Positions 1 through 2,010 of a stretch of 2,010 nt of DNA are shown piece by piece. The first letter of the stretch is position 1, and every line of letters starts with the position of its first letter. The stretch comes from a virus. Taxonomy: Duplodnaviria; Heunggongvirae; Uroviricota; Caudoviricetes. Location: IMG/VR virus record IMGVR_UViG_2671180378_000024. One strand, written 5' to 3'. The position numbers and the translations under genes were made by a program. The notes below the pieces were generated by a model. The model had not been told where the DNA came from. It saw only the letters and a list, made by a program, of their open reading frames with translations, and did not search any database.

Positions 1-72
1 TTGATTTTCAATAACCGTTCTGACATCTTCGTCTTTGACCTCTTTAGAGTAACGTTGGGTTTTTCTGCTCAT
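1..72 (-). CDS. IS3-family transposase OrfA-like protein, 5' end only (continues beyond the left edge of the window)
   Basis: The reverse complement of 1-72 reads ATG AGC AGA AAA ACC CAA CGT TAC TCT AAA GAG GTC AAA GAC ... = MSRKTQRYSKEVKDEDVRTVIENQ. A canonical AAGGAG Shine-Dalgarno sits 6 nt upstream of the ATG (reverse complement of 79-84). The N-terminus resembles IS3-family OrfA helix-turn-helix proteins from memory (pattern MSRKTQRYSKEFKAEAVRTV..). Only 24 codons are visible, so the family call is tentative. Confidence 0.5.
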   Translation of the reverse strand, partial: MSRKTQRYSKEVKDEDVRTVIENQ

Positions 73-136
73 TATTAGCTCCTTCTGATGCCATTCTATT
101 TCAGGAAGGATTGTCCGTTAAACTCAGGCTACCTCA
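1..136 (-). mobile_element. Terminal segment of an IS3-family insertion sequence (inferred left inverted-repeat end near base 136; body extends left of the window)
   Basis: Read in IS orientation, the sequence from base 136 leftwards starts TGAGGTAGCCTGAGTTTAACGG..., a TG-initiated terminus about 64 nt upstream of the OrfA start codon. This spacing is typical of IS3-family left ends. Homology of the adjacent capsid fragment to lambda gpE begins within a few codons to the right of this point, consistent with an insertion junction. The exact boundary is uncertain by roughly 10-20 bp. Confidence 0.45.
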
Positions 137-488
137 CGCCGCAGAACTGGCCTGTAAAAACCTGGGTGAAGTGGTGAGCTTTAAAGGCTATCTGGGCGAT
201 ATTGCCCTTGTCGTCTATTCCGGCAAATACACTGACAGCGACGGCACCGAAAAATATTTCCTTGAGCCTGATTTGCTGGTCCTGGGTAACACCAACAATA
301 AAGGGCTGGTGGCCTATGGTGCGATTATGGATCAGGAAGCGGTCAGAACGGGCGCAACGCAAAACATGTTTTACCCGAAAAACTGGATTGAGGACGGCGA
401 TCCGGCGATTGAGTACGTGCAGACGCACAGCGCACCGCAGCCGGTACCGGCAGATATTCGCAAATTTGTTATCGTCAAAATTGGTTAA
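111..488 (+). pseudogene. Major capsid protein, lambda gpE family, C-terminal remnant (about 115 of about 340 residues), 5' truncated, probably by the IS insertion
   Basis: The translation ..AELACKNLGEVVSFKGYLGDIALVVYSGKYTDSDGTEKYFLEPDLLVLGNTNNKGLVAYGAIMDQEAVRTGATQNMFYPKNWIEDGDPAIEYVQTHSAPQPV.. aligns by eye with the C-terminus of lambda gpE as recalled (..AVKDLGKAVSYKGMYGDVAIVVYSGQYVENGVKKNFLPDNTMVLGNTQARGLRTYGCIQDADAQREGINASARYPKNWVTTGDPAREFTMIQSAPLML..), with roughly half the residues identical, down to the stop. The frame is closed by a TAG at 45-47. The only in-frame start upstream of the homology is a TTG at 111, which lies inside the inferred IS terminus. Homology to gpE begins near base 137-141. 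Confidence 0.75.
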
Positions 489-500
489 CGGGGGGATTCT

Positions 501-836
501 ATGGACACTCCATACATTGAGTTATTTGCAGGTAGTCAGCAGGTATCCACGACGCTGGTACATTTTGCTGCTGATGCTGGCGTTATTCAGGAATTTACCC
601 CGCTGATGCTGGCGGAAAATGGCGAGTTTAAGCCGTGGGATGGTCAGGAATCTGGCAAGGCTGTTTATCTGACCTCGTACCCCGTGGACACGTCGACGCA
701 GAAATCAGCACAGTGCTACAAGACGGGGATATTCAATATTGCCGCCGTTAACTGGCCTGAGAGCGCCGACACCGACGCGAAAAAATGCGCCGCCTTTGCG
801 GGTTCTGGCGTATCCGTTCAGCCGCTGGCGCGATAA
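501..836 (+). CDS. Head decoration protein, lambda gpD family (complete, 111 aa)
   Basis: ATG at 501 preceded by a GGGGGGA Shine-Dalgarno (490-496) with a 4-nt spacer. The translation ..TPLMLAENGEFKPWDGQESGKAVYL..STQKSAQCYKTGIFNIAAVNWPESADTDAKKCAAFAGSGVSV.. aligns with lambda gpD as recalled (..[70 protein letters not shown]). Length matches lambda gpD (110 aa). It starts 12 nt after the capsid-fragment stop. Confidence 0.85.
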   Translation: MDTPYIELFAGSQQVSTTLVHFAADAGVIQEFTPLMLAENGEFKPWDGQESGKAVYLTSYPVDTSTQKSAQCYKTGIFNIAAVNWPESADTDAKKCAAFAGSGVSVQPLAR

Positions 837-848
837 GCAGGGGGAACG

Positions 849-1262
849 ATGGCAACGAATGAAAGTATCATGACGCTACCGCTGGCGAGTAAATTTAAAG
901 CCGAAGCGCGGGCAATGGCTGACAGAGGTTTATCAACCTACGAGGCCGTATATCAACTTAACAGCCTGGAAGAGAAGGACAAGCCGCGCGCTGATGCGAT
1001 TATGGCGCTTCATGAATCTGACGACTATCAGCCGCTGTTACGTGCAATGGCAAACGTGCCTTGTATTGATGTTGATACGGCTAAAAACATCCTGAACATG
1101 ACCATAGAGCAGGAACGCCCGAAGGTTGCACCAGAGCTTACCGCAGCCTTTGAAAACTTTATGGACATGCACAGCCCACAAGCCGTATCAGCTGGCATGG
1201 CATACGATGGCAGAAACCCGGGCGATGACGGCGACATCGATCGCATACTGAAAACCATCTGA
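849..1262 (+). CDS. Hypothetical acidic protein (137 aa), function unknown; co-oriented and translationally close-packed with the gpD-like gene
   Basis: ATG at 849 preceded by an AGGGGGA Shine-Dalgarno (839-845). It starts 12 nt after the gpD-like stop and ends at a TGA (1260-1262), immediately followed by a rho-independent terminator. No in-frame stops; E. coli-like codon usage. The protein has a marked excess of Asp/Glu over Lys/Arg. I do not recognise a family. It is not similar by eye to lambda gpFI, gpW or gpFII as I recall them. Confidence 0.75.
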   Translation: MATNESIMTLPLASKFKAEARAMADRGLSTYEAVYQLNSLEEKDKPRADAIMALHESDDYQPLLRAMANVPCIDVDTAKNILNMTIEQERPKVAPELTAAFENFMDMHSPQAVSAGMAYDGRNPGDDGDIDRILKTI

Positions 1263-1267
1263 GACAA

Positions 1268-1290
1268 GGCCGGAGAAATCCGGCTTTTTT
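1268..1290 (+). terminator. Rho-independent terminator downstream of the capsid-module genes
   Basis: GCCGGA (1269-1274), GAAA loop (1275-1278), TCCGGC (1279-1284), followed by TTTTTT (1285-1290). Begins 6 nt after the ORF3 stop. The T-run is on the + strand only, so it is unidirectional. Confidence 0.7.
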
Positions 1291-1291
1291 G

Positions 1292-1364
1292 CGGGTCCTT
1301 TCCGGCATATGGACCTGTTACGGGGCGGAGACCTCGCGGATTTTCGCTATTTATGAGCCTTTTC
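1292..1364. other. Lambda-type cohesive end site (cos): cosQ-like block, cosN, and the cosN-proximal (I2-like) part of cosB
   Basis: 1292-1305 CGGGTCCTTTCCGG is identical to the lambda cosQ-region motif as recalled, and lies the same 17 nt from the cohesive-end sequence as in lambda. 1335-1364 CGCGGATTTTCGCTATTTATGAGCCTTTTC matches lambda CGCGGGTTTTCGCTATTTATGAAAATTTTC at most positions. Downstream of about 1365 the sequence diverges from lambda cosB. Confidence 0.85.
1323..1334. other. cosN 12-nt cohesive-end sequence GGGCGGAGACCT (lambda: GGGCGGCGACCT); predicted terminase nick sites flank this segment
   Basis: Context TTACG|GGGCGGAGACCT|CGCGGA compared with lambda TTACG|GGGCGGCGACCT|CGCGGG as recalled. 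There is a single C-to-A difference at base 1329, position 7 of the overhang. Nick positions are inferred by analogy, not observed. Confidence 0.8.
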
Positions 1365-1428
1365 AGGGGGGTGGTGGTGGTTTTGTTGTTTGATCTATCT
1401 TTATGAATGAAAAGGGAAAGATGCAAGC

Positions 1429-1466
1429 AATACACCAACCTGAAGCAGTAATTAAGTTGGTGTATT
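1429..1466. repeat. Perfect 11-bp inverted repeat (AATACACCAAC ... GTTGGTGTATT) with 16-bp spacer, ending 1 nt before the terS ATG
   Basis: 1429-1439 AATACACCAAC is the exact reverse complement of 1456-1466 GTTGGTGTATT. It lies between cosB and the first ATG of the Nu1-like ORF. It could be a protein-binding palindrome or an RNA hairpin affecting translation initiation. Confidence 0.5.
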
Positions 1467-1467
1467 A

Positions 1468-2010
1468 ATGAAATCTCATCTGATGAACAAAAAAAACATG
1501 GCGAAAAGCTGCCGTGTAAGTGCGACAGCGTTCGACAAGTGGGGAGTAACTCCCGTTGAGCGTAAAGGCCGTGAGGCGTTTTATGATGTTGCCAGCGTGA
1601 TAGAAAATAGGGTTAACAATGCAATTAGCCAGCTTATAAACGACAAAGGCGAGATTGACGATGATGAACTTTTACGAGTCAGGATCAGATTACTGACAGC
1701 ACAGGCAGAGGCGCAGGAACTTAAAAACGATCGCGATCGCGGTGACGTGATTGATACTGAGTTTTGCCTGTACGCGCTTTCAAAGCTGGCGAGTCAGATT
1801 TCATCAATCATGGACATCCTCCCGCTTACTATGCAAAGGAGCTTCCCACAGATTACCCCCGCCATGCTGGACAGGCTTAAAAGGGAAGTGGTTAAAGCCT
1901 GTAATGCCAGTGCCAGAGTTGCCGACAACCTCCCACAGATACTGGCTGATTACTTGAAAGAAACAACCGGAAACGTACCGGAAAAGTTGCTACAGAAGAA
2001 AGGCGAGTAA
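1468..2010 (+). CDS. terS: Terminase small subunit, lambda Nu1 family (complete, 180 aa; alternative start at 1483)
   Basis: The translation ..NKKNMAKSCRVSATAFDKWGVTPV..LLTAQAEAQELKNDRDRGDVIDTEFCLYALSKLASQISSIMDILPLTMQRSFPQ.. aligns with lambda Nu1 as recalled (MEVNKKQLADIFGASIRTIQNWQEQGMPV..RLTRAQADAQELKNARDSAEVVETAFCTFVLSRIAGEIASILDGLPLSVQRRFPE..). Length matches lambda Nu1 (181 aa). It lies about 135-150 bp downstream of cosN, as Nu1 does in lambda (about 190 bp). Stop TAA at 2008-2010. No obvious Shine-Dalgarno upstream of either candidate ATG. Confidence 0.9.
   Translation: MKSHLMNKKNMAKSCRVSATAFDKWGVTPVERKGREAFYDVASVIENRVNNAISQLINDKGEIDDDELLRVRIRLLTAQAEAQELKNDRDRGDVIDTEFCLYALSKLASQISSIMDILPLTMQRSFPQITPAMLDRLKREVVKACNASARVADNLPQILADYLKETTGNVPEKLLQKKGE

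Follow-up and report, generated by a model that had tools for sequence, protein, structure and literature searches.

EcCICFT073 is a phage-inducible chromosomal island (PICI) that is induced by a helper, is packaged from cos, and carries a capsid gene (c1499), a decoration gene (c1500), and two functional cos sites (PMC6092414). According to a later survey, 21 of the 29 Gram-negative PICIs taken as references have a major capsid gene (PMC10111431). Helper-dependent induction, replication, and high-frequency transfer have been shown experimentally for EcCICFT073 only (PMC6092414, PMC6739421), and not for an island with a small terminase (TerS) gene of the kind described here. We analyzed a 2,010-nucleotide stretch of DNA, referred to below as the window (IMG/VR record IMGVR_UViG_2671180378_000024; positions 2-2011 of draft contig LOGF01000184.1, assembly GCA_001606815.1). 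The window very probably represents the right-hand end, with morphogenesis and packaging functions, of an EcCICFT073-family PICI, a ~10.9-kb satellite of lambdoid cos phages located between roxA and phoQ, with the insertion sequence (IS) IS600 in its capsid gene.

The island shares many features with EcCICFT073 (ISME J 2018; Mol Cell 2019). Both occupy the roxA|phoQ site and follow the order int-alpA-...-rep-ssb-perC-orf68-E-D-ORF3-cos1-cassette-cos2-orf93, with 94% DNA identity over E-D-ORF3-cos1, two inverted cos cores, and a lambda-like cosQ/cosN joined to a foreign cosB. They differ in the packaging gene, a homolog of Nu1 of 180 amino acids (aa) standing in place of the 144-aa RppA of EcCICFT073, and in cosB itself. 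The O26-type copy additionally has a RepA-type helicase where EcCICFT073 has a D5-type primase, and IS600 interrupts the capsid gene of the window's copy. The PICI reported for O157:H7 EC4115, O26:H11 11368, and O103:H2 12009 in the ISME J 2018 supplementary tables is the same element. These tables enter the O26 11368 island (1619447-1630554) among the PICIs, as 'same as O157:H7 EC4115' (Fillol-Salom et al. 2018 supplement, PMC6092414). Only the IS600 insertion and one base distinguish the window's copy from the O26:H11 11368 PICI.

Other satellites provide partial parallels. The pac-type Staphylococcus aureus pathogenicity islands (SaPIs) SaPI1 and SaPIbov1 also encode a satellite small terminase, which pairs with the large terminase of the helper and redirects packaging, and this serves as a working analogy. 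These SaPIs are, however, headful (pac) elements of Gram-positive cocci with an unrelated TerS family and a need for Ppi, whereas the present island is of the cos type with a Nu1 homolog; no Ppi-like gene was identified in the TerS-type island. SaPIbov5 is a cos-packaged satellite whose Ccm protein, like the capsid gene product considered here, is a homolog of the helper major capsid protein. Unlike Ccm, which redirects assembly to small capsids, the E. coli family has shown no small capsids and no phenotype upon capsid gene deletion, and its capsid gene is accompanied by homologs of decoration and Nu3-like scaffold genes. Capsid-forming PICIs (cf-PICIs), such as EcCIEDL933 (Alqurainy et al. 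2023), also combine head and packaging genes, and they have int, alpA, and rep in common with classical E. coli PICIs. Their complement is a full set of terS, terL, HNH, portal, protease, capsid, and connector genes, in contrast to the capsid, decoration, scaffold-like, and terS genes found here. Finally, lambda and the lambdoid prophage of CFT073 follow the order cos-Nu1-A-W-B-C/Nu3-D-E, then tail genes, whereas the island has E-D-Nu3'-cos-Nu1 only.

Island context and distribution

The window from 137 to 2010 is 99.9% identical to the chromosome of O26:H11 11368 at 1627541-1629414. The island of that strain comprises, in order, an integrase, an AlpA-type helix-turn-helix (HTH) gene, an Icd-like gene, small open reading frames (ORFs), a RepA helicase, a single-stranded DNA-binding protein (SSB), and PerC, and continues with orf68, a capsid gene of 351 aa, the decoration gene, ORF3, terS, and orf93. 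Direct repeats of 36 bp delimit ~10.9 kb (12031-12066 and 22896-22931 in locus L001). In intact copies, the tyrosine integrase gene adjoins roxA and is followed by a gene of the AlpA family (62 aa; PF05930, Phage_AlpA), and the replication module consists of a RepA/AAA_25 helicase or a D5_N primase together with SSB. Nearly all genes lie on one strand. The window's own contig runs on past the window through orf93 and attR into phoQ. The CFT073 island has the same attachment site and the same gene order. The succession orf68-E-D-ORF3-terminator-cos1-cassette-inverted cos2-orf93 is the standard layout of EcCICFT073-type PICIs. Intact islands contain no terL, portal, protease, connector, tail, or lysis genes, and no terL partner gene lies next to terS.

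These data bear on a preliminary description of the window, which had reported a capsid gene fragment, a decoration gene, ORF3, a terminator, cosQ, cosN, cosB, and Nu1 in this order on one strand. All of these elements are present in that order on the plus strand, as judged by Pfam matches, alignment of cos, and folding (Table 1). That no IS lies at the D/ORF3/cos/Nu1 junctions was also correct, and the order recurs in intact copies elsewhere, in which the E-D-ORF3-cos-Nu1 junctions are all free of IS. Among the origins it had considered, a compact cos-bearing satellite with its own capsid, decoration, and small terminase genes agrees with the 10.9-kb islands, their integrase, AlpA gene, replication module, and 36-bp repeats. 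The same context excludes the two others, permutation of the head module in a lambdoid phage and a moron of duplicated head genes at a prophage's right end. A terminase had been placed directly after cos; the small terminase gene is indeed there, and no terL accompanies it in intact copies. The flanks likewise contain no full head module beyond terS.

The novelty implied for this gene order is not supported, since the order is standard for EcCICFT073-type PICIs, the O26:H11 11368 island has been catalogued, and 490 of the 5426 complete E. coli genomes contain the whole stretch 137-2010. The preliminary description had allowed that many lambdoid phages with an identical order would make this a known, ordinary arrangement; in spirit this proved right, except that the carriers are satellites and not phages. 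Across the same genomes, the E-D-ORF3 module is found in 591 and the terS cassette in 757. The CFT073 rppA cassette was detected in 53 of them at a coverage of at least 80% and in 175 with any match, so that the TerS form is commoner in complete E. coli genomes than the queried CFT073 rppA cassette. The layout orf68-E-D-ORF3-cos1(+)-cassette-cos2(-)-orf93 holds throughout 91 additional loci, which comprise 48 with terS, 20 with Rpp, and 23 with neither; some of the latter are truncated contigs and others carry a third cassette, described below.

The arrangement is thus already known and common, and the apparent 'non-canonical synteny' is a hallmark of a common published satellite family, recognizable where gpE and gpD genes adjoin a lambda-like cos with an orphan Nu1 or Rpp gene. 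The additions made here are modest: the Nu3-like identity of ORF3, a cos-bracketed cassette with three states, and purifying selection on the capsid module. None of the three was found in the literature searched, nor was a functional study of the TerS-type PICI variant.

Table 1. Features of the window, compiled from six-frame ORFs and family scans
Feature	Position	Strand	Basis
IS600-family (IS3 family) insertion sequence, left end	1-136	-	96.3% identity to annotated copies
Major capsid gene, 3' part (codon 235 to stop), gpE-like	137-488	+	PF03864, E=1.7e-16
Head-decoration gene, lambda gpD homolog, 111 aa (c1500 in EcCICFT073)	501-836	+	PF02924, E=1e-17
ORF3, 137 aa (c1501 in EcCICFT073), Nu3/gpC C-terminal scaffold-domain homolog	849-1262	+	phrog_1999
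Intrinsic terminator hairpin after ORF3 (GGCCGGA GAAA TCCGGC + T run)	1266-1290	+	folding
cos1 core: cosQ-like GGGTCCT (1293-1299) and cosN GGGCGGAGACCT (1323-1334), predicted 12-nt cohesive end	1293-1334	+	alignment
~35 nt of lambda-like sequence, then cosB1	1335-1467	+	comparison, conservation
terS, full-length lambda Nu1 homolog, 180 aa	1468-2010	+	PF07471, E=7.9e-23

The small terminase and the cos-bracketed cassette

TerS belongs to the Nu1 family. The protein scores 81 bits against PF07471, for which the cut-off is 30 bits, and matches phrog_57 over residues 1-174 (2e-51). It aligns end to end with Nu1 of lambda and with Nu1 of the CFT073 lambdoid prophage, and its closest phage relative is gp1 of N15, at 44% identity. 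The RLxxAQAxAQELKN and LPLxxQRxFP blocks are kept between TerS and Nu1. The winged-helix region is also present, with recognition-helix residues that differ from those of Nu1; a 13-residue stretch of the linker is missing, and the C-terminus is extended by 12 residues. TerS has no detectable similarity to RppA and falls outside the Rpp type, which is defined by a length of 144-153 aa and a winged HTH followed by a C-terminal coiled coil. A sequence search of the PDB with TerS returned nothing meaningful and recovered neither the DNA-binding domain of lambda Nu1 nor RppC. As intact islands have no terL, the orphan TerS would have to use gpA of the helper.

The cos1 core is of the helper type. 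cosQ, cosN, and ~35 nt to the right of cosN align nearly base for base with lambda and with the CFT073 lambdoid prophage, and the core aligns with the cos of EcCICFT073 as well; GTTACG lies in the aligned stretch. The cosN sequence, GGGCGGAGACCT, has one mismatch to lambda. We note that position 7 of cosN (window 1329) is A in GGGCGGAGACCT, a state seen only in the O26-like clade, and is C in lambda, in cos2 of the same island, and in all other copies.

The likeness to lambda and to the EcCICFT073 island stops ~35-40 nt past cosN. The cosB1 region that follows is satellite-specific and unrelated to the R sites of lambda. It contains a GGTGGTGGTGG run and ACACCAACCTGAA, and its blocks are kept across 32 distinct TerS-type sequences. 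A second cos core, in inverted orientation, lies 191 bp past the window end (about 2191-2202 in L097; 22021-22096 in L001). cos1 and cos2 form a 76-nt inverted repeat with 79% complementarity, and the terS cassette is thus flanked by two cos sites that face each other. The cosB2 side carries three CAGATCC-type repeats, which, together with the conserved blocks of cosB1, are candidate TerS-binding R elements. A perfect 11-nt inverted repeat at 1429-1466 was also considered as a site for TerS or a regulator; no claim is made for it because its right arm is not conserved in relatives. On the plus strand, the sequence upstream of terS yielded no sigma-70-like promoter.

Comparison of the O26-type and CFT073-type islands delimits the cassette. 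The two are 94% identical from upstream of orf68, through E-D-ORF3, to ~40 nt past cosN; they are then unrelated over ~800 bp and again ~90% identical from the second cos core on. Between the cos cores, the O26-type island has cosB1-terS-cosB2, and the CFT073 island has a different cosB and rppA. A third type of cassette, of ~535 bp, has no credible ORF and hence neither terS nor rpp (L077 8955-9490; also L025, L079-L082, L086, L088, and L091), and its CCGGACAT repeats resemble the cosB of helper phages. The packaging-specificity cassette therefore exists in at least three forms: with its own TerS, with Rpp, and with no gene and a phage-like cosB. In some copies (L028, L038, L040, L052, and L053), the cosQ-cosN spacer of cos1 has the CTGGAATTATGGCCC typical of cos2 and not CCGGCATATGGACCC, which suggests that the two inverted cos cores have exchanged sequence.

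The island thus combines a helper-type cosQ and cosN with its own cosB and its own full-length Nu1 homolog, and has no terL. In the mechanism that we propose, the island would be induced by a helper prophage, excise, and replicate into concatemers, which would be packaged from the island's own cos sites by the large terminase (gpA) of the helper. TerS would bind the satellite cosB via its diverged N-terminal winged helix and recruit helper gpA via its conserved central and C-terminal region. gpA would then nick the helper-like cosN, and packaging would continue up to a cosQ-proximal cos. Each lambda-size head would most likely take up several copies of the genome, as four copies of 10.9 kb amount to 43.6 kb. 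In this scheme, TerS would direct packaging to the island in the manner of the TerS of pac-type SaPIs, a task that Rpp accomplishes by a different route in EcCICFT073. The gpE-, gpD-, and Nu3-like proteins would probably join or modify capsid shells built on the portal and protease of the helper.

Head genes and alternative explanations

The capsid fragment covers positions 228-328 of the 329 positions of the PF03864 profile and differs from the intact gene of O26:H11 11368 by one base. The IS is inserted in codon 235 of the 351-codon satellite capsid gene (L097 1-137), and this copy of the gene is a pseudogene. When intact, the protein aligns collinearly with lambda gpE, with 44% identity and two gaps, and with the capsid protein of the CFT073 prophage, with 45% identity. 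The decoration protein is 38% identical to lambda gpD and matches phrog_49 'head decoration' (6e-27). In the index of the assembly collection, 10,912 blocks contain this exact decoration protein. The islands that carry it vary in integrase and attachment site, with locations near pntB/ydgV or at roxA|phoQ (L012 and L010 versus L006-L015), and also in replication gene (RepA helicase or D5 primase) and packaging cassette. These satellites are assembled from exchangeable modules.

ORF3 is, on the evidence of profile matches and alignments, a homolog of the Nu3-type scaffold of lambdoid phages. It matches phrog_1999 over its full length (4e-63) and also the C-terminal end of the phrog_53 'head maturation protease' profile (7e-9). 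phrog_1999 is matched equally by the last 137 residues of gpC of the CFT073 prophage (4e-64), by lambda Nu3 (3e-26), and by a stand-alone Nu3-like protein of 195 aa (1e-41). Direct BLASTP comparison of ORF3 with the gpC C-terminus gave 36% identity (E=6e-10), and the alignment shows a common IMAL-E...PGM/PCI...A..IL repeat and an FExFMxxHSP motif. Two whole-database protein searches with ORF3 returned close relatives, one homolog of 40% identity, and one Nu3-like protein of 195 aa only; the Nu3 link therefore rests on the PHROG profiles and the targeted comparisons. ORF3, orf68, and orf93 have no match in Pfam or NCBIfam, and no underlying model was found for the name 'phage head-tail connector protein' that ORF3 bears in some NCBI records. 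The c1501 product is listed as a 137-aa protein with no function given (ISME J 2018 supplement, PMC6092414).

The satellite thus has homologs of the lambda trio that forms, fills, and stabilizes the shell (E, Nu3, and D), and these PICIs carry a shell-forming trio beyond the capsid gene alone. The trio comes without a portal and without a protease domain. Between the O26 and CFT073 alleles, dN/dS (the ratio of nonsynonymous to synonymous substitution rates) is 0.06 for the major capsid protein, 0.18 for D, and 0.21 for ORF3, and the genes of the capsid module are under strong purifying selection. Phage homologs of the head-module proteins are only 35-47% identical to them; the module is therefore old and was not captured recently.

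Several points weigh against our reading of the island and of its genes. For this copy, a different contig holds the left part of the island, and the island features were read from intact copies. This copy may be partly defective because its capsid gene is broken, and the loss of that gene to an IS also speaks against a necessary role of the head genes. The mechanism given for TerS is drawn by analogy from the established behavior of lambda terminase and of satellite TerS proteins, and the capsid-building role of the head genes is putative. In EcCICFT073, deletion of the capsid or the decoration gene had no phenotype, and small capsids were not seen (PMC6092414). ORF3 is frameshifted in one copy (L044 4828-5240) and deleted in another (L046 4404-4533), and the capsid, decoration, and terS genes are intact there.

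The deletion results have to be read together with the strains used. Marked EcCICFT073 islands carried c1501::tetA, in the ORF3 homolog, or c1499::cat, which replaces the capsid gene (PMC6092414). Judging from the strain names, one gene of the E-D-ORF3 trio may already have been disrupted in the deletion experiments. Since that island is moreover of the Rpp type and not of the TerS type, the published absence of a phenotype may not exclude a larger role for the module. We consider it possible, though rather unlikely, that the gpE-, gpD-, and Nu3-like genes, the island's own TerS, and its cosB form a semi-autonomous unit for shell building and packaging specificity. Such a unit would build or co-build a shell on the helper portal and protease, possibly of another size or stability, and fill it via its own TerS. 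If so, it would be intermediate between classical PICIs and cf-PICIs.

The broken capsid gene, the loss of ORF3 in a few relatives, and the EcCICFT073 deletions would also suit a decaying remnant, that is, a duplicated or captured head-gene fragment (a moron or a piece of a cryptic prophage) with no present function and an accidental cos-Nu1 neighborhood. We regard this explanation as very improbable, however, because hundreds of genomes keep the module intact and in synteny, and because it has the low dN/dS values given above and pairs with varied integrases, replication modules, and packaging cassettes, a pattern to be expected if the module is functional and mobile. In addition, mobility of the family has been demonstrated experimentally (PMC6092414, PMC6739421).

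A lambdoid lineage whose head module is permuted, so that the packaged genome would have E and D at its right end and Nu1-A after cos, is extremely improbable once complete genomes are considered. The proteins are true homologs of their lambda counterparts E, D, Nu3, and Nu1, and the cos site resembles that of lambda. Nevertheless, in every complete genome examined, the block lies in an ~11-kb island that ends at attR beside phoQ or another chromosomal site and has no terL, portal, tail, or lysis genes, and the closest phage proteins are only 44-47% identical. A megablast search of the window against 50,697 phage records found matches in the IS part only, and no sequenced phage therefore carries the arrangement. 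In favor of such a phage, one 4.6-kb metagenomic contig (L073 2301-4614) has E-D-ORF3-terminator-cos, a phage-like cosB, a different Nu1 of 169 aa, and the N-terminus of TerL. Its parts are joined at the ~76-nt cos core that is common with phages, and it may be a satellite-helper recombinant or an assembly chimera. That the island, with its capsid, decoration, scaffold-like, and small terminase proteins, is a cf-PICI building complete capsids of its own and stealing only tails is scarcely credible, as intact copies lack the defining genes (terL, portal, maturation protease, head-tail connectors, and HNH).

Insertion sequence, terminator, and orf68

The left end of the window is the end of an IS600-family element on the minus strand, with its terminal TG at 136 and the orfA start codon at 72. 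The preliminary description had begun the capsid fragment at 111; its start was moved to 137 because the TTG at 111 lies inside the IS. The IS end matches copies annotated 'IS3-like element IS600 family transposase' and also IS copies in Shiga toxin (Stx) phages, and its 24-aa N-terminus gives a weak HTH_Tnp_1 match. Its best identity to any copy in the 5426 complete E. coli genomes is only the value given in Table 1. The start of contig LOGF01000184.1 falls inside the IS. The IS600/capsid junction is common to 19 contigs in public assemblies, and the exact junction was absent from the GTDB species representatives searched. A capsid-based scan of GTDB representatives confirmed nothing, which is a weak negative because only two peptide patterns were used.

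The terminator hairpin after ORF3 folds with -17.5 kcal/mol (z=-3.5), and none of 200 shuffled sequences was as stable. A simple terminator scanner did not pick up this hairpin, which is kept in all 32 distinct TerS-type sequences. An ORF of 136 aa on the minus strand at 1028-1438, across cos, was rejected as a gene because it is broken in relatives. To the left of the capsid gene, and always upstream of it, lies orf68 (L001 19091-19297), which encodes 68 aa, matches phrog_3255 of no known function, and overlaps the start of the capsid gene by ATGA. It occurs in two allelic classes, ~69% and ~97-100% identical.

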